A DNA stretch of 11,282 bases from Miltoncostaea sp. (lineage in GTDB: Bacteria; Actinomycetota; Thermoleophilia; Miltoncostaeales; Miltoncostaeaceae). Shown one piece after another: positions 1 to 11,282 of this stretch. Each line of letters starts with the position of its first letter. The first letter of the stretch is position 1. The stretch spans positions 1 to 11,282 of the forward strand of contig JARFPS010000171.1 of assembly GCA_029288175.1 (NCBI GenBank), written 5' to 3'. A program made the translations under genes and the position numbers. The notes beneath the pieces are model-generated. The model ran no database searches and was not told where the DNA came from. It was given only the letters and a program-made list of their open reading frames with translations.

Positions 1-1
1 C

Positions 2-373
2 AAGCGCACCGCGCTGACCGAGTATCCGCGCAAGGGTCGTCCCACCAAGGGCGTGCGCACCATCAAGCTGGCCGAGAACAAGGGCGGGCTCGTCGGTGCG
101 CGCACGGTGCGCGAGAACGACCAGCTGTTGCTGATCTCCAAGCACGGGCAGGTCATCCGCATCGACGTCGGCGCGGTCAAGCGCATGGGCCGGCCCACCG
201 AGGGTGTGCGGCTCATGGACACGGCGGACGACGACTGGGTCTGTGGGTTGGCCGCGGTGGACGAGCCCGACGAGAACGGCGCGCCGGAGGCGACGGACGG
301 CGGGTCGGCCCCCGACGACACGGCGAGCGACGCCGAGGTGCCGGCCGAGGAGGAGGCTCCGCCCACCGGGTGA
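2..373 (+). CDS. gyrA: Type IIA topoisomerase subunit A (DNA gyrase GyrA / topo IV ParC-like), C-terminal beta-pinwheel blade plus acidic tail; 5'-partial (runs off window start)
   Basis: The reading frame is open from base 2. The translation KRTALTEYPRKGRPTKGVRTIKLAENKGGLVGARTVRENDQLLLISKHGQVIRIDVGAVKRMGRPTEGVRLMD matches the repeated GyrA/ParC C-terminal blade pattern (..GrgtKGv..ikl.e.d.lvga..v.e.d.lllit..G.viR..v.ev..mgR.t.GVrlm). It ends in an Asp/Glu-rich tail, with stop TGA at 371-373. I cannot decide between GyrA and ParC from the sequence alone. Confidence 0.6.
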   Translation, partial: KRTALTEYPRKGRPTKGVRTIKLAENKGGLVGARTVRENDQLLLISKHGQVIRIDVGAVKRMGRPTEGVRLMDTADDDWVCGLAAVDEPDENGAPEATDGGSAPDDTASDAEVPAEEEAPPTG

Positions 374-376
374 GCT

Positions 377-391
377 CGGCGACCGGCGCCG
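377..391. terminator. Short GC hairpin (cggcg-accgg-cgccg) in the 21-bp gap between the convergent stops of the topoisomerase gene and the GalT-like gene; possible bidirectional terminator
   Basis: An inverted repeat CGGCG/CGCCG with a 5-nt loop is seen directly in the sequence. There is no U-tract, and the stem is short. Confidence 0.15.
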
Positions 392-394
392 CGC

Positions 395-1255
395 TCAGGC
401 GGCGAACGCCGGACGCAGCTCGGCGGCCACGTCCTGCGGAGCGCGGTGCGCCGCAATGACGCCAGCGCCCAGCTCGAGCCCCGCCAGAGTCCCGAGCCGG
501 GGGATCAGGTCGAGGTGCCAGTGGTACGACGGCGTTCCGCCGGGCGGGCGCTCGAACAGGCAGATGTTGACGTTCTCGGCCCCGAGCCCGCTCTCCACAG
601 CCTCCACCAGCCGCACGAGCGTCGCACCGAAGCCGGCGGCGTCGAGGCCGCTCCGCCAGTCCGGCGCCGGTCTCTCGGGCGCGACCCTGATGACCCCGGA
701 CATCGACGGTACCTCGGGACACCAGGCCACCAGGCCGGCCTCGCGGACCACGATGCGGTCGGTCGCGATGTCGTCGAGGAGCAGCCCCGCCCGCTGCGCG
801 AACGCCCGGTCGCGCGTGGCGAGCCGTCCGGGAACCATGGGCAGGCCGACGATCTGCGCATGGGTGTGGGTGAGCGATGCCCCGGCCAGTGCCCCCTGGT
901 TCAGGAAGAGATAGGGCGTCAGCCCGCGCGGGTCGTCGCCCACCGCCCGAAGTCGGTCCGCCCACACCCCCACCGCGGCCGCCGCCTCGTCGGGGGTCAG
1001 CTCGCTGAGCGACGCGAGGTGGCGCGGCGAGTTGATGACCACCTCGTGCGAGCCCTCGTCGGCCGGGACCGTGGGGAACTTGTTGGGAATGGCGCGCACC
1101 GTCCAGCCCGGCCCGTCGGCCCTACCGCCTCCCGGCCTCACGGCCTGGGTCTCCGGGGGTGTCGCGCTCTCGTTTCCCGGGCAGAACGGGCAGCCCGACG
1201 GGGAGCCCTTTCCGATGTCGTTCGGCCGCCCGGCGCGTGCAGGGGCGAGCAGCAC
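395..1255 (-). CDS. GalT-branch HIT-superfamily nucleotidyltransferase (galactose-1-phosphate uridylyltransferase / NDP-sugar phosphorylase-like)
   Basis: CPFCPGNE matches the zinc-binding CxxC motif of GalT (E. coli CFLCAGN). SPRH is an additional metal ligand. LTHTHAQIV matches the GalT active-site H-x-H-x-Q (E. coli PHPHGQIW). The annotated start is GTG at 1255. Recognisable GalT N-terminal homology (RIDPLTGEPVLLAPARAGRP, compare E. coli RYNPLTGQWILVSPHRAKRP) continues in-frame upstream to about 1294 with no ATG/GTG/TTG, so the true 5' end is uncertain. Confidence 0.75.
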   Translation of the reverse strand: MLLAPARAGRPNDIGKGSPSGCPFCPGNESATPPETQAVRPGGGRADGPGWTVRAIPNKFPTVPADEGSHEVVINSPRHLASLSELTPDEAAAAVGVWADRLRAVGDDPRGLTPYLFLNQGALAGASLTHTHAQIVGLPMVPGRLATRDRAFAQRAGLLLDDIATDRIVVREAGLVAWCPEVPSMSGVIRVAPERPAPDWRSGLDAAGFGATLVRLVEAVESGLGAENVNICLFERPPGGTPSYHWHLDLIPRLGTLAGLELGAGVIAAHRAPQDVAAELRPAFAA

Positions 1256-1290
1256 GGGCTCGCCCGTGAGGGGATCGATGCGGACCGGGG

Positions 1291-2100
1291 TCAGGAGGCG
1301 GCTCGCTCCTCGATCGCGGCCGGCCGGTCGCCGGCCTCCAGGCTGGCCTTGAGGGCCGCCATCAGGTCGACCGGGGCCGGGACCTGCTCGGTCTCGGCCG
1401 GGGTGATCGGCTCCTGTCCCGCGGCTTTGGCATCCAGGAACTCCTGCAGACGGGCGCGCGTCTCGTTCGGGTAGGCCCCGGGCTCGAACTCCTTGGTGAG
1501 GCCGTCGATCAGCTGCTCGGCCATCGACAGCTCCTCGTCGGCCACCTCGATGCCGTCCAGCCGGTCGGCGATGACGCGCTGCTCCGCCTGGCGCACGTCC
1601 TCGGGCCAGTAGAGCGTCTGCAGGGCCATCACACCGTCGACCGGCCGGAGAAGCACCAGGTGCTCGCGCGTAGAGAGCACGAACTTCCCGACCCCCGCGC
1701 GCCCCGTCCGCTCCATGGCCTCGGCCAGGAGGGCGTAGGGCCGCTCCGCCCGCTCCTGCGGCTCGATCCAGTAGGCGCGCTCGAAGAAGACCGGGTCGAC
1801 CTCTTCCAGTCGCACGAACTGAAGGATCTGGATGGTCCGCTCGTTGCGCACGGCGAAGCGGGTCAGCTCCTCCTCGTCGATCGGGATGAACCGCCCCTTG
1901 GCGACCTCGTACCCCTTGACCGTCTCGTCCCGCGGCACCTCGACGTCGCGCTCGGGGTCCCAGCGCTTCTGCTTGACCGGCTGACCGGTGGCCTTGGACA
2001 GCGTGCGGAAGCTGACGTCCTTGCGCTGCTGGGCGATGCCCACGGCCACCGGGATCGTCACCAGGCCGAACGAGATGAAGCCGTTCCAGATCGAGCGCAT
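1291..2100 (-). CDS. ku: Ku protein (bacterial non-homologous end-joining DNA-end-binding protein), minimal 269-aa form without a basic C-terminal tail
   Basis: The N-terminus MRSIWNGFISFGLVTIPVAVG is the bacterial Ku signature (M. tuberculosis Ku begins MRAIWTGSIAFGLVNVPVKV). Conservation continues through ...VDPVFFERAYWIEPQ... (Mtb VDPMMFDRSYFLEPD). Start ATG at 2100, stop TGA at 1293-1291. Confidence 0.9.
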   Translation of the reverse strand: MRSIWNGFISFGLVTIPVAVGIAQQRKDVSFRTLSKATGQPVKQKRWDPERDVEVPRDETVKGYEVAKGRFIPIDEEELTRFAVRNERTIQILQFVRLEEVDPVFFERAYWIEPQERAERPYALLAEAMERTGRAGVGKFVLSTREHLVLLRPVDGVMALQTLYWPEDVRQAEQRVIADRLDGIEVADEELSMAEQLIDGLTKEFEPGAYPNETRARLQEFLDAKAAGQEPITPAETEQVPAPVDLMAALKASLEAGDRPAAIEERAAS

Positions 2101-2130
2101 GGGGGTTCCGCTCCGGGGTGGGTCGAAAGG

Positions 2131-2970
2131 CTACCCGTGACCGTTGGGCGGAGAGCCGTCTGCGCCGACCCCGGCGCCCGTGCCGGTCTCCGCGCCCTCG
2201 CCGAGCGCGGCGCCCAGGGCACCGAGGCCCTTCATCGCTTCCATCATCTCGACCGGGAAGGGGATGATCAGGCTGCTGGTGTTGCCCGAGGAACCGATCT
2301 CGTTGACCGTCTGGAGGTAGCGCAGCTGCATGGCGCCGGCCTCGGTGGCGATGACCCGGGCCGCCTGGGAGAGCTTCTCGGACGCCTGGAACTCACCGTC
2401 CGCGGCGATGATCTTGGCGCGCCGCTCGCGCTCGGCCTCCGCCTGGCGCGCCAGGGCGCGCTGCATGTCGGTCGGAAGCTCGACGTCCTTCACCTCGACC
2501 ACGCTGACCTTCACGCCCCACGGCTCGGTCTGCTCGTCGATGATCTGCTGAAGGCGGTCGTTGATCTGGTCGCGCTCCGAGAGCAGGTGGTCGAGGTCGA
2601 CCTGGCCGAGCACGCTGCGCAGCGTGGTCTGCGAGATCTGCGACGTGGCCACCAGGAAGTTCTCGACCTGGACGATGGCCTTCGAGGCGTCGACCACGCG
2701 GAAGTAGGCGACCGCGTTGACCTTGACGGTGACGTTGTCGCGGGTGATGACCTCCTGCGGCGGCACGTTGAGCGTGACCGTCCGGAGGTCCACCTTCACG
2801 GCCTTGTCGATGAAGGGGATCAGGATGAACAGCCCCGGCCCCTTGATGCCGATGAGCCGACCCAGTCGGAAGACCACCCCGCGCTCGTACTCGCGGGCCA
2901 CCTTCACGGCCGCGAACAGGAACATCAGGGCGACCGCCAAGATGATGATGATCGCGATGAGGGCGCCCAT
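2131..2970 (-). CDS. SPFH / Band-7 (stomatin-prohibitin-flotillin-HflK/C) family membrane protein
   Basis: There is an N-terminal hydrophobic anchor ([18 protein letters not shown]). This is followed by [14 protein letters not shown]...PFID...VDLR, typical of the start of the SPFH domain. Next comes a coiled-coil region rich in [12 protein letters not shown], then a Gly/Ala-rich tail. An AAGGAG ribosome-binding site lies 7 nt upstream of ATG 2970 on the minus strand. Confidence 0.85.
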
Positions 2971-3078
2971 GCCACGCTCCTTGATCGGGGTTCGGGGGCT
3001 CCGCCATCACAGATTGAAGCACGAACGGAGCGATTCTCGCGGTCATCCGTCGCCCGTTTGGGCTAGCATTGCGCCGCT
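2971..3078. promoter_or_regulatory. Divergent intergenic region (108 bp) expected to hold promoters for the minus-strand SPFH-ku-HIT genes and the plus-strand fab operon
   Basis: This is the only non-coding stretch longer than 40 bp in the first 10 kb, and it is flanked by divergent gene starts. A candidate -10-like hexamer TAGCAT sits at 3064-3069. Imperfect inverted repeats (cgaacgga/tccgtcg at about 3022-3053; gggct...agccc at 3060-3086) could be operator sites. I cannot verify any of these as real sites from sequence alone. Confidence 0.35.
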
Positions 3079-3534
3079 TTGAGCCCCGGTGAACCCCGTT
3101 CTGTGGCTCCTACCGAGCTTCTCCCCCACCGGCCACCGTTCCTGTTCGTCGACGAGATCGTCGACCTCCGACCGGGGGAGTCGGCCCGTGCCCGGTGGTA
3201 CGTCGATCCCGATGCGGCCTTCTTCGAGGGCCATTTCCCGGGGAACCCCATCCTCCCGGGGGTGATCATCGTGGAGGCGCTCGCACAGACCGGCGCCCTG
3301 GCGGCGCTGGCCGATCCCGAGACCGAAGGAAAGCTCGCCCTGTTCGCCGGTATCGACAAGGTGCGCTTCCGCAGGCCGGTGCGCCCCGGCGACACCCTGG
3401 ACATGGAGACCGCCCTCACGCGCAGGCGTGGCCCCGTGGGCGAGGGGAAGGGAGCCGCGGTGGTCGGCGACGAGAGGGCGTGCGAGGCCGTCGTGAGGTT
3501 CGCACTGGTCGACGTCGACGAGGCGACGACATGA
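3079..3534 (+). CDS. fabZ: 3-hydroxyacyl-ACP dehydratase FabZ
   Basis: LLPHRPPFLFVDEI, HFPGNPILPGV and IVEALAQTG match the FabZ/FabA hot-dog fold, including the active-site His region (E. coli LLPHRFPFLLVDRV ... [20 protein letters not shown]). The start is either TTG 3079 or GTG 3103. Stop TGA 3532-3534 overlaps the fabH ATG as ATGA. Confidence 0.88.
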   Translation: MSPGEPRSVAPTELLPHRPPFLFVDEIVDLRPGESARARWYVDPDAAFFEGHFPGNPILPGVIIVEALAQTGALAALADPETEGKLALFAGIDKVRFRRPVRPGDTLDMETALTRRRGPVGEGKGAAVVGDERACEAVVRFALVDVDEATT

Positions 3535-4553
3535 TCGCGGTCCGCAACGGCTCGCGGGCGCGCGCCCGACTCGTGGCGCTCGGGGCGCACGTGCCGGAGC
3601 GTGTCGTGACGAACGCCGAGATCGAGACATGGGTGGACACCACCGACGAGTGGATCACCACTCGCACCGGCATTCGTGAGCGCCGCTTCGTGGCCGAGGA
3701 CGAGGCGGCGAGCGATCTCGGCGTCGTGGCCGCCGAGCGCATCCTCGACGAGGCCGGGATGGCCGCGGCGGACGTCGACGTGCTCATCGTGCCCACGGCC
3801 AGCCCCGACCACATCTTCCCGTCGACGGCCGCCCTGGTGGCCGACCGCATCGGCGCGCACAAGGCTGCGGCCTTCGATCTGAACGCCGGCTGCACCGGGT
3901 TCGTCTACGCCCTGGCCCAGGCCTGCGCCCTCATCGAGTCGGGGATCGGGCGCAACGTGCTGGTGGTGGGGGCCGAGGCGCTGAGCCGCCTGATGGACCC
4001 CACCGACCGCAGCACGTGCATCCTGTTCGGCGACGCCGCCGCGGGCGCCTTGCTGGTGGCCGAGGAGGCGGATGCGCAAGGGGTCACCGGCTTCCTCGGC
4101 TTCGAGCTCGGCGCCGACGGCTCGGGCGGGCACGATCTGGTGGTCCCGGCGGGTGGCAGTCGTCAACCGCTCGGTGCGGTGGACGCTCCCGGCGATGCCT
4201 GCATCCAGATGAACGGCCGGGAGGTGTTCAGGTTCGCCACGCGGGTGATGGTCGACTCGTGCACCCGCATGCTCGAGGCGGTCGAGATGGGCATCGACGA
4301 GGTCGATCTGCTCATCGCCCACCAGGCCAACAGCCGCATCATCGACCACGCGGTTCCCAAGCTCGGCATCGACCCCGAGCGGGTGCTCAACAACCTCGAC
4401 CGCTACGGCAACACGAGCTCGGCCTCCATCCCGCTGGTGCTGACCGAGGCCCGTGACGACGGACGGCTTGAGCCGGGCCACCTGATGCTGCTGGTCGCCT
4501 TCGGCGCCGGCCTGACCTGGGGATCGACATTGGTGAGGTACGAACCCGCATGA
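3531..4553 (+). CDS. fabH: 3-oxoacyl-ACP synthase III (KAS III) FabH
   Basis: The protein aligns along its full length to FabH: VVTNAEIETWVDTTDEWITTRTGIRERRF; catalytic Cys in AFDLNAGCTGFVYAL; His in LIAHQANSRI; Asn in RYGNTSSASIP; C-terminal FGAGLTWGS. The start ATG at 3531 overlaps the fabZ stop as ATGA. The six-frame ORF extends upstream to 3195, but that stretch is antisense, non-coding-looking sequence. Confidence 0.92.
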   Translation: MIAVRNGSRARARLVALGAHVPERVVTNAEIETWVDTTDEWITTRTGIRERRFVAEDEAASDLGVVAAERILDEAGMAAADVDVLIVPTASPDHIFPSTAALVADRIGAHKAAAFDLNAGCTGFVYALAQACALIESGIGRNVLVVGAEALSRLMDPTDRSTCILFGDAAAGALLVAEEADAQGVTGFLGFELGADGSGGHDLVVPAGGSRQPLGAVDAPGDACIQMNGREVFRFATRVMVDSCTRMLEAVEMGIDEVDLLIAHQANSRIIDHAVPKLGIDPERVLNNLDRYGNTSSASIPLVLTEARDDGRLEPGHLMLLVAFGAGLTWGSTLVRYEPA

Positions 4554-5464: not shown

Positions 5465-6201
5465 TGCCGACCGCGCTCGTCACGGGGGCCTCACGCGGGA
5501 TCGGCGCCGCCATCGCGCGCGCCCTCTCCGAGGAGGGCTTCGACGTCGCGGTGGGGTACCGGTCGGACGAGGAGGGCGCGCGGGCGACCGCGGCGGCGGT
5601 CGAGACGGCCGGGCGCCGGGCCAGCGTGCACGGTGGCGACATCGCCGACGCGGATGCGGCGGCGGCCCTCGTGGAGGGCGCCGAGGAGGCCCTCGGCCCG
5701 CTTGATGCGCTGGTTCTGAACGCAGGCGTGACGGCCGACGCGCTCGCCGTCCGCATGTCGGCCGAGGACTGGGGCTCGGTCATCGACACCAACCTGACGG
5801 GCGCCTTCAACGTGGTCCGTCCCGCGCTCCGCGGGATGATGCGCCGACGCGAGGGGAGCATCGTGGCCGTCTCGTCCGTCGTCGGGCTGACGGGCAACGC
5901 GGGCCAGTGCAACTACGCGGCCGCCAAGGCCGGTCTCATCGGCCTCGTCCGGTCGCTCGCGCGCGAGACGGGGGGTCGCGGCGTGCGGGTCAACGCGGTG
6001 GCGCCCGGCTACATCAGCACCGACATGACCGCCGGCCTGTCCGAGGAGCAGCGCGAGGCCATCCTCGGGGCCACCCCACTGGGCCGGCTGGGCGAGCCGG
6101 AGGACGTGGCCGGCGCGTGCGCATTCCTCTGCTCGCCCGAGGCCGCCTTCGTCACCGGGGCCGTCCTCACCGTCGACGGCGGCCTCGCCATGGGATCGTG
6201 A
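5464..6201 (+). CDS. fabG: 3-oxoacyl-ACP reductase FabG (SDR family)
   Basis: ALVTGASRGIGAAIA is the Rossmann TGxxxGIG motif. LVLNAGV is the NAG motif. S...NYAAAKAG provides the YxxxK catalytic residues. The product is 246 aa. Start ATG at 5464 overlaps the fabD stop as TGATG. The six-frame ORF extends upstream to 5098 in frame, but that stretch lies inside fabD. Confidence 0.88.
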   Translation: MPTALVTGASRGIGAAIARALSEEGFDVAVGYRSDEEGARATAAAVETAGRRASVHGGDIADADAAAALVEGAEEALGPLDALVLNAGVTADALAVRMSAEDWGSVIDTNLTGAFNVVRPALRGMMRRREGSIVAVSSVVGLTGNAGQCNYAAAKAGLIGLVRSLARETGGRGVRVNAVAPGYISTDMTAGLSEEQREAILGATPLGRLGEPEDVAGACAFLCSPEAAFVTGAVLTVDGGLAMGS

Positions 6202-6205
6202 GGCG

Positions 6206-7468
6206 ATGAGCGCGCCTCCACTCGATCAGCGCGTCGCCGTCACCGGGCTCGGCGTCGTGAGCCCCCTGGGCATCGGCGTCGACGCCACCTGGGCGGGCGC
6301 GACCGCGGGTGTCAGCGCGGCCGGCCCGATCACGCTCTACGACCCCTCGGAGACCCACACCACGATCGCCTGCGAGGTCAAGGACTTCGAGCCCGGTGAC
6401 CACATGCCGTCGCGGATCGCGCGGCGCATGGAGCGGTTCGCCCAGTTCGGCGTGGCGGCCGCCCGCATGGCCCTCGAGGACGCGGGGCTCAGCCTTGACG
6501 GCGCCGCGCGCGATCGCGCCGGCGCGATCGTGGGCAGCGGCATCGGCGGCCTCCGCTCGTTCGAGGTCCAGTCCGAGATCATGGCCGAGCGCGGCCCCAC
6601 GCGGCTGTCGCCGCTGTTCATTCCGTTGATGATCGCGAACATGGGCGCCGCCCAGATCTCGATGGAGCTCGGTCTGCGCGGACCGCTGTCGTGTGTCTGC
6701 ACCGCGTGCGCGTCGGGCAACCACGCCATCGGCGACGCCGCCGCGGCCATCCGTCGCGGGGACGCGGACGTCATGTTCGCCGGCGGCGCCGAGGCCACGA
6801 TCACCCAGATCGGCATCGGCGCCTTCAACGCCATGCGCGCCCTGTCGACGCGCAACGACGACCCGGAGGCCGCCAGCCGCCCGTTCGATGCGGATCGCGA
6901 CGGGTTCGTCATGGGCGAGGGCGCGGGGCTCCTTCTGCTCGAGCGAATGGATCAGGCGGTGGCCCGCGATGCCGAGATCTACTGTGAGCTCGTCGGCTAT
7001 GGGGCGACGGGCGACGCCCATCACCTCACCGAGCCCGATCCCACCGGCGAGGCGCCGGCGCGGGCCATGACGATGGCGCTCGAGCGCGCCGGGGTCACGC
7101 CCGAGGAGGTCGGATACGTCAACGCCCATGCCACGGCGACCCCGGTGGGCGACACCAGCGAGCTCGCCGTCCTGCGCATGGCCCTCGGCGACGCGGCCGC
7201 AACGACCCCCGTGAGCTCCACCAAGTCGATGCACGGGCACTGCCTGGGCGCGGCCGGCGGCATCGAGGGCGTGCTGACCGTCAAGGCCATGAAGGAAGGG
7301 CTCATCCCGCCGACCATCAACCTGGACAACCTCGATCCCGATTGCGAGGGGGTCGACCATGTGGCCAACGAGGCCCGGCCGGCCACGGTGGACGTGGCGG
7401 TGTCGAACGGGTTCGGGTTCGGCGGGCACAACGCGGTGATCGTGATGCGCCGGGCGGAGGACGCATAG
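6206..7468 (+). CDS. fabF: 3-oxoacyl-ACP synthase I/II (KAS II) FabF
   Basis: VAVTGLGVVSPLG at the N-terminus. Catalytic Cys in CTACASGNHAIGDA. His in NAHATATPVGD. His in KSMHGHCLGAAGG. C-terminal NGFGFGGHNA. The product is 420 aa. There are only 4 bp after the fabG stop, so there is no room for acpP. Confidence 0.92.
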   Translation: MSAPPLDQRVAVTGLGVVSPLGIGVDATWAGATAGVSAAGPITLYDPSETHTTIACEVKDFEPGDHMPSRIARRMERFAQFGVAAARMALEDAGLSLDGAARDRAGAIVGSGIGGLRSFEVQSEIMAERGPTRLSPLFIPLMIANMGAAQISMELGLRGPLSCVCTACASGNHAIGDAAAAIRRGDADVMFAGGAEATITQIGIGAFNAMRALSTRNDDPEAASRPFDADRDGFVMGEGAGLLLLERMDQAVARDAEIYCELVGYGATGDAHHLTEPDPTGEAPARAMTMALERAGVTPEEVGYVNAHATATPVGDTSELAVLRMALGDAAATTPVSSTKSMHGHCLGAAGGIEGVLTVKAMKEGLIPPTINLDNLDPDCEGVDHVANEARPATVDVAVSNGFGFGGHNAVIVMRRAEDA

Positions 7469-7521
7469 CGATCGGCGCGATCGATCCGCTGCGCTCGCTG
7501 ATCTTCCGCGCCAGCGACCTG

Positions 7522-8022
7522 GTGTACCGCCCACCGGCGAGCCGCCGGGGCTGGACGTGGATCGGGGACGGTCGCCTCGCGATCGGGGCGAAGCCCGGCC
7601 CGGACGACATCGGGCGGCTCGCGGACGACGGGGTGACGCACATCGTCAACTGCCGGGCGCGCGAGCAGCACCTGATCTCCCAGGATCTCTGGATGGAGCA
7701 GCGCGCCCTCGGCGAGGGCCGAGTCGTCGCGGCGCCGATGTGGGACCACGGGCGACCTCAGGACCCGCGGCGATGGGCGCCGGCGGCAGAGTTCGCCGCC
7801 GCCGCGCTCGCCGACCCCGGCGCGCGCGTGCTGGTGCACTGCCAACAGGGCCGCCGGCGCTCGGCCATGGTGGCCTACGCCGTGCTGCGCTTGGGGGGCG
7901 TGTCCGAGTCGGAGGCGGCGCGCACGATCCTCGAAGGGCGCCCGGTCACGAGCATCGTGCCGGCGTACCGGGCGTCGGTCGAGGGGTGGCTGTCCGCGCG
8001 GGACACCCCGACGCTGCAATAA
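7522..8022 (+). CDS. Dual-specificity (Cys-based, CX5R) phosphatase-like protein, PTPMT1/DSP-like; start codon uncertain
   Basis: The P-loop VLVHCQQGRRRSAMVAYAVL matches the HCxxGxxRS active site (CX5R), as in PTPMT1 HCKAGRSRS. A candidate general-acid Asp lies in PMWDHGRPQD about 35 residues upstream. The domain core begins around DGVTHIVNCRAREQ. GTG 7522 is the only canonical in-frame start after the fabF stop (7466-7468). The six-frame ORF begins at ATG 7342, but that would overlap fabF by 126 nt. A GGAGG at 7456-7460 precedes a non-canonical ATC at 7471. Confidence 0.6.
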   Translation: MYRPPASRRGWTWIGDGRLAIGAKPGPDDIGRLADDGVTHIVNCRAREQHLISQDLWMEQRALGEGRVVAAPMWDHGRPQDPRRWAPAAEFAAAALADPGARVLVHCQQGRRRSAMVAYAVLRLGGVSESEAARTILEGRPVTSIVPAYRASVEGWLSARDTPTLQ

Positions 8023-9959: not shown

Positions 9960-10244
9960 TCAGATCGTCTCGAGGTCGAGTCCGTGCAGCGCGAGCTCGT
10001 CGCCCACGCCCTCGGGAAGCTGAACCTCGCCGCCGAAGGCCTCCTTGTGGAGACGCAGCGCGCGCTCGAAGAGCGCGCGGTTGGTGGGGGTGTGCTCGGG
10101 GGTGAAGTCCACCGCCAGAGCGATCTCCCGGTACCACCGCTGAAGCTCGGCGCTGGGGCGTCGATCCGGATCAACGCGCACCATGTCCATCACGAGGGCT
10201 AGGAGTCCGCGCAGGGATGCGCGCGGGTCGGGTCCCGGTGTCAT
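9960..10244 (-). CDS. Hypothetical small protein (94 aa), family not recognised
   Basis: The ATG at 10244 is preceded on the minus strand by a perfect Shine-Dalgarno AAGGAGG with 5-nt spacing (plus-strand 10250-10256 cctcctt). Stop TGA at 9962-9960. The six-frame ORF (9960..10484) continues upstream in frame, but that part is Arg/Pro-rich and overlaps the 3' end of the neighbouring gene. The sequence MTPGPDPRASLRGLLALVMDMVRV...WYREIALAVDFTPEHTPTNRALFERALRLHKEAFGGEV... has mixed, helical-looking composition. I do not recognise any motif. Confidence 0.5.
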   Translation of the reverse strand: MTPGPDPRASLRGLLALVMDMVRVDPDRRPSAELQRWYREIALAVDFTPEHTPTNRALFERALRLHKEAFGGEVQLPEGVGDELALHGLDLETI

Positions 10245-10306
10245 CTGAGCCTCCTTGCTCGTCTGAAGGCGCAGGGCATCCCGCCGTGCGCCGTTGGTCG
10301 TGCAGC

Positions 10307-10322
10307 GGACCATCCGTGGTCC
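10307..10322 (-). terminator. Perfect 6-bp inverted repeat hairpin (GGACCA-tccg-TGGTCC) 20 nt downstream of the lipid-kinase stop; possible terminator or attenuator between the kinase gene and the small ORF
   Basis: The palindrome is seen directly in the sequence. There is no U-tract, which is common for actinobacterial terminators. It is also compatible with a protein-binding palindrome. Confidence 0.2.
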
Positions 10323-10342
10323 TTCCGCGTGGAGGTCGGCTC

Positions 10343-11282
10343 CTAGGGGGGCGACTTGAGGGGCGGGGCGGCGGATGGTCCCGGCGGGACCAGCACCCGG
10401 AGGGTGGGGCCGGCCGCGAACAGGACCGAGCCGTGCGAGCCGAGCGGCTCGCCGTCGGCCTGAACGGCGACGGCGCGGTCGCACTCCACCTCGATCGCGG
10501 TCGCGTGGCCGGCCGCCATTCGCCCCGAGCCGAGATGCCGGGCGGTGCCCCGGATCGATTCGGCGGCCAGTTCCGCCAGGCGGGCGGGCGTGATCTCAGG
10601 CATCGCCAACCAGGCCAGCACCCCGTCGAAGGCCGCGGCCGGCAGGGCGTGGACGGCGCGCGGACCCAGGTACGTGTAGGGGGACCCCACGGCCACGGCC
10701 AGCGCGGCGGCGGTCAGCCGCGGCCCGCCGGCGACCCGCACCGACAGGACGGGGGGGTCGCGCAGCGCGCGGGACGCCGCCACGCTCGCGCCGATCCCGA
10801 ACGCGGCCTGTCGAAGGCGCGCCTTCACGTTCGGCCGGGTCTCAACCCACTCCACCACCTCGGCGTCGATGCCCACGCCGGCATTGGCGATGAACGGGCG
10901 TCGCCGGGAGCCGGTCGTGACCTCGCCCACCGTCGCCTCCCGGACGATCCCGGCGGCCAGGGCCGGTGCGAGGGCCTGGGCCGCCCTGGTGCTCGACGCC
11001 GGCCACCCGAGCGCGCGGGAGAAGATGTTCGCGCCGCCCGCGGGGACGGGCGCGACGATCAGGCCCCGACGTGCGGCCGTCTCGGCCACCTGCGTCACCG
11101 TGCCGTCGCCACCGACCGTCACCAGGACGCGCGCGCCCGCGTCGGCGGCGTCCCGGGCGAAGCGCGCCGCGTCGCCGGGACCCCGCGTAGAGCGGAGCTG
11201 CAGGAGGCCGAACGGGGTGAGCACGTCGACCACCCGCCCGATCAGCCGCGATCGCGCCCTCGTGGCGGCGGGATTCACGATC
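10343..11282 (-). CDS. Diacylglycerol-kinase catalytic-domain (DAGK_cat, YegS/BmrU/Rv2252-like) lipid kinase; 5'-partial (continues beyond window end)
   Basis: RVLVTVGGDGTVTQVAE carries the GGDGT nucleotide-binding hallmark of DAGK_cat/sphingosine-kinase-like lipid kinases. The N-terminal ..NPAATRARS.. resembles the NPxSG start of the fold. Stop TAG at 10345-10343. The ORF is still open at 11282. Confidence 0.7.
   Translation of the reverse strand, partial: IVNPAATRARSRLIGRVVDVLTPFGLLQLRSTRGPGDAARFARDAADAGARVLVTVGGDGTVTQVAETAARRGLIVAPVPAGGANIFSRALGWPASSTRAAQALAPALAAGIVREATVGEVTTGSRRRPFIANAGVGIDAEVVEWVETRPNVKARLRQAAFGIGASVAASRALRDPPVLSVRVAGGPRLTAAALAVAVGSPYTYLGPRAVHALPAAAFDGVLAWLAMPEITPARLAELAAESIRGTARHLGSGRMAAGHATAIEVECDRAVAVQADGEPLGSHGSVLFAAGPTLRVLVPPGPSAAPPLKSPP

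Follow-up and report, generated by a model that had tools for sequence, protein, structure and literature searches.

The prokaryotic stomatins are SPFH/Band_7 proteins with an N-terminal membrane anchor that are encoded in NfeD-SPFH1 operons, examples being YbbJ-YbbK/QmcA and PH1510-PH1511. In SPFH1b operons an NfeD1b-type gene directly precedes the SPFH gene, and SPFH genes without an NfeD partner are also known, from 50 genomes (PMC2636767). Described bacterial Ku proteins, among them Mku of Mycobacterium and YkoV of Bacillus, belong to the machinery for non-homologous end joining (NHEJ) and recruit LigD through a minimal C-terminal region (PMC9638933, PMC4889933). We analysed a locus of Miltoncostaea sp. 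in which genes of these two kinds stand together with a third, encoding a GalT-like enzyme of the HIT superfamily. The window, by which we mean the whole stretch of 11,282 bp that makes up contig JARFPS010000171.1 (assembly GCA_029288175.1; 72% GC), carries the three as co-directional minus-strand genes in the order SPFH (2970-2131), Ku (2100-1291) and HIT (ending at 395), and all three open reading frames (ORFs) lie where a preliminary description of this DNA had placed them.

All three genes belong to known families and are ordinary representatives of them. The group as a whole is probably the form that an origin-proximal NfeD-SPFH operon of Thermoleophilia takes here, with two unrelated passenger genes, added independently of each other, in its 3′ part, the products of which act separately. 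It amounts to a variant of the NfeD1b-SPFH1b operon (PMC2636767) with extra 3′ genes, Ku and the GalT-like HIT, that lie outside the operon as described. The arrangement itself is undescribed: our literature search found no paper on a Ku or GalT-like gene in SPFH operons, in agreement with the preliminary description, which had not recognised the combination as a known module. It looks like lineage-specific operon accretion and not like a new system. The preliminary description had instead suggested that Ku and HIT could be a functional pair that processes DNA ends on an SPFH scaffold. That suggestion is not supported, the genes being separable and the HIT protein being nearest to ADP-glucose phosphorylase and not to aprataxin.

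Gene order across relatives

We used tblastn to compare the window proteins with the surroundings of HIT homologues at 80 genome loci, and read further contexts of HIT and Ku homologues through their Pfam annotation (±8 kb), which brought the comparison to about 90 related loci overall. Single-linkage clustering of all locus ORFs was confounded by long spurious ORFs at 70% GC and was usable only for conserved positions. The HIT homologues come almost entirely from metagenomes and metagenome-assembled genomes (MAGs) of Thermoleophilia, namely of Miltoncostaeaceae and Solirubrobacterales.

Five arrangements were found. In the first, NfeD-SPFH-HIT, the SPFH gene lies directly or closely before HIT and there is no Ku; it accounts for 61 of the 80 genome loci, all Solirubrobacterales-like, with the wider context hemC-hemD/cobA-LplA-unknown-redoxin-NfeD-SPFH-HIT. 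The second, NfeD-SPFH-Ku-HIT, occurs in Miltoncostaeaceae-like loci (L001, L002, L008, L082 and L083) between the fab cluster and ftsH-gyrA-gyrB-dciA-recF, an order seen in L082 and L083. The third, NfeD-SPFH-Ku without HIT, is that of cultured Miltoncostaea marina and three MAGs (L086, L087, L088 and L090). The window has the fourth, SPFH-Ku-HIT without NfeD, together with L066 and its own closest relative L089, whose Ku is 91% identical. In the fifth, HIT stands alone between fabZ and gyrA (L005, L007 and L009). SPFH homologues (59-86% identity) lie upstream of HIT in 65 of the 80 genome loci, and the order SPFH-Ku-HIT is found again at no fewer than 10 related loci (L001, L002, L008, L066, L081-L085 and L089). 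The neighbourhood comparison that the preliminary description had called for thus gives a divided answer: only one family keeps the linkage, and either partner can be dispensed with.

The position between SPFH and HIT that Ku occupies in Miltoncostaeaceae is filled in about nine Solirubrobacterales loci by a GNAT acetyltransferase gene (including L051, at 7464-7973, L033, L035, L052 and L061), and a GNAT gene lies directly upstream of HIT in L016 (7145-7978). HIT is found without SPFH in L003-L007, L009, L016, L056, L067 and L070, and outside Thermoleophilia (Omnitrophota L026, L057 and L059; L045) it likewise has no SPFH neighbour. No convincing Ku remnant was found upstream of HIT in L003, nor a HIT remnant downstream of Ku in L087. 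Because the flanking contexts otherwise differ, SPFH-HIT is the only block common to the two orders; because Ku and HIT are each found in the operon without the other, they are separable passengers. NfeD/SPFH is the one constant element. Parsimony makes SPFH-HIT the older arrangement and ku a family-specific insertion, with NfeD, HIT and the basic tail of Ku lost in particular sub-lineages.

These distributions bear directly on the idea of an NHEJ end-processing pair, in which the GalT-like HIT protein would act with Ku in the manner of aprataxin, removing or transferring AMP or other nucleoside monophosphates (NMPs) on abortive ligation intermediates, with the SPFH protein as membrane anchor. 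Some observations do suit it: no LigD gene is nearby, HIT superfamily enzymes share covalent His-NMP chemistry, and Ku is joined to HIT by a CTGA stop/start overlap in the window, L001, L008, L066, L081-L085 and L089. However, HIT does without Ku in the 61 Solirubrobacterales-like loci, Ku does without HIT in four loci that include cultured M. marina, and an identical CTGA links HIT to SPFH where there is no Ku. Because SPFH-HIT junctions carry it too, the CTGA coupling belongs to the HIT gene rather than to a pairing of Ku with HIT. With the properties of the HIT protein itself also counting against such a pair, as set out in the next section, we regard it as highly improbable.

The GalT-like HIT enzyme

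Read from its proposed CTG start, the HIT gene (395-1294, minus strand) encodes a class I GalT-type enzyme of 299 aa that resembles ADP-glucose phosphorylase and matches Pfam GalP_UDP_transf at 38.7 bits, against a cutoff of 22.1. A profile of 22 HIT sequences searched against the Protein Data Bank (PDB) matched Arabidopsis At5g18200 (1Z84/2H39, deposited as ADP-glucose phosphorylase) over its full length at E = 1.6e-61, followed by the Pyrobaculum-type GalT 6K5Z (1.2e-43) and by E. coli and human GalT, which range from 1e-25 to 1e-17 (E. coli GalT, 8e-25). Structure comparison gave the same answer. An AlphaFold2 (AF2) model of the protein (pLDDT 83, pTM 0.83) had 2H39 and 1Z84 as its best Foldseek matches (E = 4e-21, TM 0.75-0.76, about 290-310 aligned columns).

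The catalytic elements of the class are all present. The protein is built of two tandem HIT-like half-domains and has a conserved CPFCPGNE zinc site, with C35, C38, H92 and H143 as zinc ligands. Its HxHxQ motif with the nucleophilic second His, H143-T-H145-A-Q147, is invariant in the 22 aligned sequences and aligns with HSHSQ of 1Z84; H258-W-H260 in the second half is also conserved. The window stretch FLNQGALAGASLTHTHAQ closely parallels FKNQGASAGASMSHSHSQ of At5g18200, the pattern NQGAxAGAS-x-HxHxQ being near-identical in the two. The assignment to the GalT branch of the HIT superfamily made in the preliminary description is thus borne out. At5g18200, the ADP-glucose phosphorylase of this branch (1Z84, 1ZWJ, 2H39), has in common with the window protein the fold of two half-domains, the CxxC/His zinc site and the active-site stretch. 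The two differ in that identity is only about 26%, that a roughly 35-residue insertion of the plant enzyme and of Solirubrobacterales homologues is missing from the window HIT, and that expression of the window HIT appears to be coupled to the upstream SPFH or Ku gene through the CTG start.

Two other assignments were rejected. An ordinary Leloir-pathway GalT does not fit because the equivalog scores fall below cutoff (TIGR00209, 23 bits against 102; PRK11720, 35 against 448) and no galK or galE gene occurs in the window or among the annotated neighbours in related loci; the possibility, named in the preliminary description, of a plain galactose-1-phosphate uridylyltransferase can be set aside. 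Aprataxin, the HIT-ZnF DNA 5′-deadenylase, has the superfamily and the covalent His-NMP chemistry in common with the window protein and belongs to another branch, characterised by an HxHxHxx motif and a single HIT domain followed by a DNA-binding C2H2 zinc finger. The window HIT has HxHxQ instead and ends at the GalT C-terminal half-domain, it has no zinc finger or other DNA-binding domain, and aprataxin is not among the 50 best Foldseek PDB matches of its model. Lacking a DNA-binding module, the HIT protein has nothing in itself that points to DNA ends.

In lineages that do not have HIT behind SPFH, genes of sugar metabolism occur near it. TreT, an NDP-glucose-dependent trehalose synthase (NDP, nucleoside diphosphate), is found in L003 (6221-7543, minus strand) and L006 (5321-6769, plus strand); a phosphofructokinase gene overlaps the 3′ end of HIT in L070 (8962-10062); and genes for GAPDH and an ADP-glucose-type glycogen synthase (GlgA) lie near it in L057 (9004-11435). 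These neighbours are few and coherent with a role as an NDP-glucose phosphorylase or transferase, which homology also suggests, and as sugar enzymes they speak against end processing. Literature searches on bacterial ADP-glucose phosphorylase homologues, on 6K5Z and on NHEJ in Miltoncostaea returned nothing usable.

The Omnitrophota loci L026, L057 and L059 carry two tandem GalT-like paralogues.

A CTG codon at the probable HIT start

The first canonical start codon of the HIT frame in the window is GTG 1255, which gives the 286-aa version of gene callers and leaves a gap of 35 nt after the Ku stop. The frame is open far upstream of this GTG and just before it encodes TPVRIDPLTGEP, the conserved N-terminal strand motif of the HIT family, of which the Arabidopsis counterpart is PELRKDPVTNRW. 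No canonical start exists in the open frame upstream of this motif in the window; of the codons there only CTG 1294-1292 is start-like, and it overlaps the TGA of Ku as CTGA (1291-1294). In the alignment this CTG falls precisely on the codon at which homologues start with ATG, GTG or TTG, their sequences beginning M/V-(S/T)-P-V-R-x-D-P-L-T-G. Canonical starts followed by Ser/Thr stand at the same aligned codon in L035 and L052 (ATG), L002 and L037 (GTG) and L028 (TTG), and those GNAT-containing loci that were checked (L033, L035, L051, L052 and L061) have a canonical ATG start for HIT.

The junction is widespread. A tcCTGAgc/cc sequence follows Ku in the window, L001, L008 and L066 (8001-8004 in these three relatives), L081-L085 and L089, and CTGA is present at 10 of the 11 Ku-HIT loci; in at least 25 Solirubrobacterales loci (for example L014, L020, L021, L027, L029, L031 and L036) the stop of SPFH and the start of HIT meet in an identical tcCTGAgc. 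Among the 79 loci in which the motif was located, CTG is the only start-like codon within 25 codons upstream in 49, and the others have ATG, GTG or TTG at the equivalent position. This apparent CTG start, conserved across two orders, is the most unusual feature of the locus. The Ku-HIT overlap claimed in the preliminary description is therefore upheld in part: very probably, to judge from the homologue starts, the 4-nt overlap is real and comes about through a non-canonical start, the canonical GTG giving a gap.

Overlaps of 4 nt are a hallmark of termination-reinitiation coupling (PMC6728339, PMC10666635), which would be the simplest explanation of the CTG start. The same stop/start overlap of co-directional genes is seen in ATGA and GTGA termination-reinitiation pairs (PMC6728339); here the restart codon is CTG and not ATG, GTG or TTG, in 49 loci over two orders. 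We also weighed a programmed -1 frameshift that would fuse HIT to Ku or SPFH and discarded it, since there is no slippery heptamer and homologues with canonical starts begin exactly at the CTG position.

Could the tight SPFH-HIT junction mean that HIT is in physical contact with the NfeD/SPFH membrane cage, as its client or partner, for example as an NDP-sugar enzyme that serves cell-envelope glycans in a membrane microdomain, with Ku merely inserted between the two? The 4-nt overlap in at least 25 loci would agree with this, as would an adjacency that is the only block common to two orders with different flanks, and overlapping unidirectional gene pairs often encode subunits of heteromeric complexes (PMC10666635). 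Yet HIT lacks an SPFH neighbour in ten loci (L003-L007, L009, L016, L056, L067 and L070) and in all the non-Thermoleophilia loci, outside its GalT fold the HIT protein has no domain for membrane attachment or docking, and the gene pair tolerates a Ku or GNAT gene inserted in its middle. We think a partnership of this kind improbable.

Gene callers that disallow CTG give ragged, truncated HIT N-termini (P0001 MLLAP..., P0053 MAAGGCPFC...). For this reason the conserved N-terminal strand of the GalT-like protein is systematically cut, which affects the annotation in public databases. The conserved CTG, in most cases overlapping the upstream stop, would also be a natural system well suited to testing non-canonical restart codons in termination-reinitiation.

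In L003, at about 7780-8004, neither SPFH nor Ku precedes HIT, and the CTG of HIT is overlapped by the CTGA at which a short unannotated ORF (...APRLRRAT*) ends. This ORF has no detectable Ku similarity, and looks as if it were a leader retained to feed reinitiation.

Ku without a neighbouring ligase

The second gene (1291-2100, minus strand) encodes a bona fide bacterial Ku of 269 aa, an NHEJ DNA-end-binding protein. It scores 277 bits against NCBIfam TIGR02772 (Ku_bact; cutoff 150) across model positions 1-259 of 259, and matches Pfam Ku (PF02735) at E = 1.1e-44 and the PHROG Ku-like family at E = 2.9e-50. Like Mku and YkoV, it combines a full-length Ku_bact match with the minimal C-terminal region, for which PVDLMAALKASL is conserved with all aligned relatives, and it keeps the VDLMAALKASL region and a terminal RAAS. 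It lacks the basic extension of 20-70 aa that most relatives have (67-77% identical, 280-338 aa), which accords with its earlier description as a minimal Ku with no Lys-rich tail; in characterised Ku proteins the extended basic C-terminus binds DNA (PMC4889933, PMC9638933).

The tripeptide that ends Ku is KAS in 88 of 120 homologues and AAS in seven, and this ending is independent of the length of the basic extension and of the presence of HIT (window site 1291-1305). Nearly all Ku relatives finish in (R/K)-(K/A)-A-S, with HIT downstream or not, which makes this a conserved extreme C-terminus.

Where Mku and YkoV are concerned, the difference lies in the surroundings: the window Ku is not beside LigD and sits in a membrane-scaffold operon by a replication-origin gene cluster. 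No ligase gene is present on the whole 11,282-bp contig, in keeping with the preliminary description, and the annotated contexts (±8 kb) hold no ligase, primase-polymerase or phosphoesterase gene. A crude regular-expression search for ATP-dependent ligase motifs over the window and 90 related loci also found nothing. The accompanying statement that Ku is normally linked to LigD needs qualification. In a survey of 5,973 genomes, ku and ligD lie within 10 kb of each other in only 75% of the genomes with conventional NHEJ, and unlinked genes are not unusual (PMC7719229). Because the two are unlinked in about 25% of such genomes, a Ku without a nearby LigD is less remarkable than it might seem. 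A metagenome scan with the single Ku protein yielded only two short loci, the exact peptide patterns being too specific.

In M. marina the locus (L086; CP064655.1, 3553-20419) falls in roughly the first 20 kb of the chromosome record, and L086, L082 and L083 all have it beside recF-dciA-gyrB-gyrA, the replication-origin neighbourhood; the ku of this family is origin-proximal. One could imagine a membrane-anchored, LigD-independent end-joining module, in which Ku would be recruited to NfeD/SPFH, the membrane would hold double-strand-break ends in the vicinity of the origin, and HIT, in those sub-lineages where it is coupled to Ku, would act on nucleotidylated ends or provide ligase-independent nucleotidyl transfer. 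We give such a module next to no credence. What does hold for the whole family is that the only locally visible ku lies in an NfeD-SPFH operon beside the origin with no ligase nearby, and for bacterial NHEJ such a setting is undescribed.

The SPFH gene and transcription of the operon

The first gene of the operon (2131-2970, minus strand) encodes an SPFH1/stomatin-type membrane scaffold protein of 279 aa. As the preliminary description had it, this is a membrane SPFH/Band-7 protein: Pfam Band_7 covers residues 24-192 at E = 2.9e-40, and residues 1-23 are hydrophobic and provide an N-terminal membrane segment. HflK and HflC match it only weakly. Most relatives have an NfeD1b-type gene (NfeD1b_N, NfeD_membrane and the NfeD C-terminal domain) directly before SPFH, the pairing of SPFH1b operons (PMC2636767). 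An NfeD gene was found in 67 of the 90 loci, including L082 (4865-6163), L083, L086 (5884-7170), L087, L088 and L090. It is absent from the window, L089 and L066, in which SPFH is an 'orphan' stomatin; in the window, only 108 nt (2971-3078) separate the SPFH ATG at 2970 from the start of the divergent fabZ at 3079, and no NfeD gene lies upstream.

This divergent intergenic region is the presumed promoter region of the operon. An AGGAG stands 8-12 nt upstream of the SPFH ATG, and the spacer between SPFH and Ku, exactly 30 nt as first reported (2101-2130), carries a Shine-Dalgarno-like GGAG upstream of the Ku ATG. A scan of 1-3600 for consensus sigma-70 promoters and intrinsic terminators, which is weak for high-GC actinobacteria, found none, also between the genes, where separate signals would have spoken against a common transcript. 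With spacings of 30 nt and -4 nt and neither promoter nor terminator between the genes, the trio is almost certainly one transcript, as the preliminary description had thought probable. At the 3′ end of the operon, 21 nt (374-394) separate the HIT stop (395-397) from the stop of the convergent gyrA (371-373), and the HIT-gyrA 3′ hairpin folds locally no better than shuffled sequences (z = -0.11).

Co-transcription need not mean contact between the products, and the trio could be an adaptive stress or dormancy unit in which SPFH would serve maintenance of the membrane scaffold, Ku template-independent double-strand-break repair and HIT the nucleotide-sugar turnover of storage glucan or trehalose, all co-induced in non-growing, desiccated or starved cells. 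NHEJ is described as acting mainly in non-replicating cells and as inducible by stress (PMC6379672, PMC8656161). The TreT and GlgA neighbours would tie HIT to trehalose and alpha-glucan, classic stress metabolites, and the SPFH-Ku order is kept across the family with spacers of 5-31 nt. Counting against this idea, no LexA box lies upstream of SPFH, the only matches being 3-mismatch ones inside coding regions, and no recognisable stress promoter is found there; other lineages have a GNAT gene in the same slot, which gives an opportunistic impression; and synteny extends over the entire surrounding region, so that inheritance by itself suffices to explain the order. We therefore see a co-induced unit as unlikely.

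A proposed scaffold operon with two passengers

The reading that we prefer, an NfeD-SPFH operon with two passengers that act separately, would work as follows. The older passenger would be the class I GalT-type HIT gene, which sits behind SPFH across Solirubrobacterales and the Miltoncostaeaceae-like lineage. Its product would most likely phosphorolyse, or transfer the NMP of, an NDP-glucose (ADP-glucose + Pi <-> glucose-1-phosphate + ADP) through a covalent His145-NMP intermediate, with Cys35, Cys38, His92 and His143 as zinc site, and would serve in the nucleotide-sugar metabolism of alpha-glucan or trehalose. The younger passenger, ku, would have been inserted between SPFH and HIT in Miltoncostaeaceae only and would encode an ordinary homodimeric NHEJ end-binding protein, its ligase partner being assumed to be encoded elsewhere; the sub-lineage of the window would additionally have lost NfeD and the basic tail of Ku. 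A single transcript would start in the fabZ-SPFH divergent region. SPFH and Ku would each be translated from their own Shine-Dalgarno sites, and HIT presumably by ribosomes that terminate and reinitiate at the CTG overlapping the stop of whichever gene precedes it. The three products would have separate roles, as membrane scaffold, in NHEJ end binding and in NDP-glucose turnover.

Several points weigh against this account. SPFH and Ku are adjacent in all of the approximately 15 Miltoncostaeaceae-like Ku contexts examined, and Ku is never elsewhere in those loci; such constancy could mean a functional link rather than inherited synteny. The coupling of Ku to HIT is tight at 10 of the 11 loci, and coupling of this kind is statistically associated with subunits of complexes (PMC10666635). 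Initiation at CTG is a reading of conservation, and the substrate of the bacterial HIT members is one suggested by homology and by neighbours that are few (TreT at two loci, phosphofructokinase at one and GlgA at one). That Ku was inserted, and not HIT appended, is an argument from parsimony and not from a reconciled phylogeny. The ligase encoded elsewhere is an assumption, the search having covered the 11-kb contig and the ±8-kb contexts.

If the account is nevertheless true, the locus is a cautionary case, in which a striking coupled trio is a scaffold operon with a 3′ slot filled by unrelated genes (ku, GNAT and GalT-like). Since the genes that fill the slot are unrelated and vary with lineage, guilt by association would mislead.

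Flanking genes

Apart from the operon, the contig carries the gyrA 3′ end, fabZ, fabH, fabD, fabG and fabF, a dual-specificity phosphatase (DSP)-type gene, accD, accA, an ORF of unknown function and a DAGK-like kinase gene. The gyrA 3′ end (53-373, plus strand) encodes the C-terminal beta-propeller and is convergent with the operon; from 3079 the divergent cluster runs fabZ-fabH-fabD-fabG-fabF-phosphatase-accD-accA. An Rfam scan of the window gave zero matches, PADLOC anti-phage models had no match at E <= 0.01 to the three operon proteins, and PHROGs returned only generic Ku and Band-7 families for them.

The gap between fabG and fabF is only 4 nt in the window and in relatives (window 6201-6206; L082 2666-2690), and because no acpP lies between them the acyl carrier protein gene must be located elsewhere. 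Between fabF and accD stands a family-conserved gene for a small phosphatase of dual-specificity or protein tyrosine phosphatase (PTP)-like type (window about 7468-8022, plus strand; L087 1861-2421; L088 847-1347), an unusual member for a fatty-acid synthesis cluster. In the window the longest ORF for it, which begins at 7342, overlaps fabF at the 3′ end of that gene, and the true start is probably later. A 174-aa ORF downstream of accA (9960-10484, minus strand) has no Pfam match. The same is true of a gene of about 208 aa downstream of HIT in relatives (L028 9303-9929, plus strand), the L028 copy of which was found by tblastn in 63 of the 90 loci.

In many relatives ftsH lies between the operon and gyrA, convergent with the operon (L082 8883-10888; L086 8880-10850). 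The window and L008 are without ftsH, and in the window the gyrA stop is 21 nt from that of HIT. FtsH is known to interact with SPFH proteins, and the adjacency of ftsH to the operon in relatives may be no accident.

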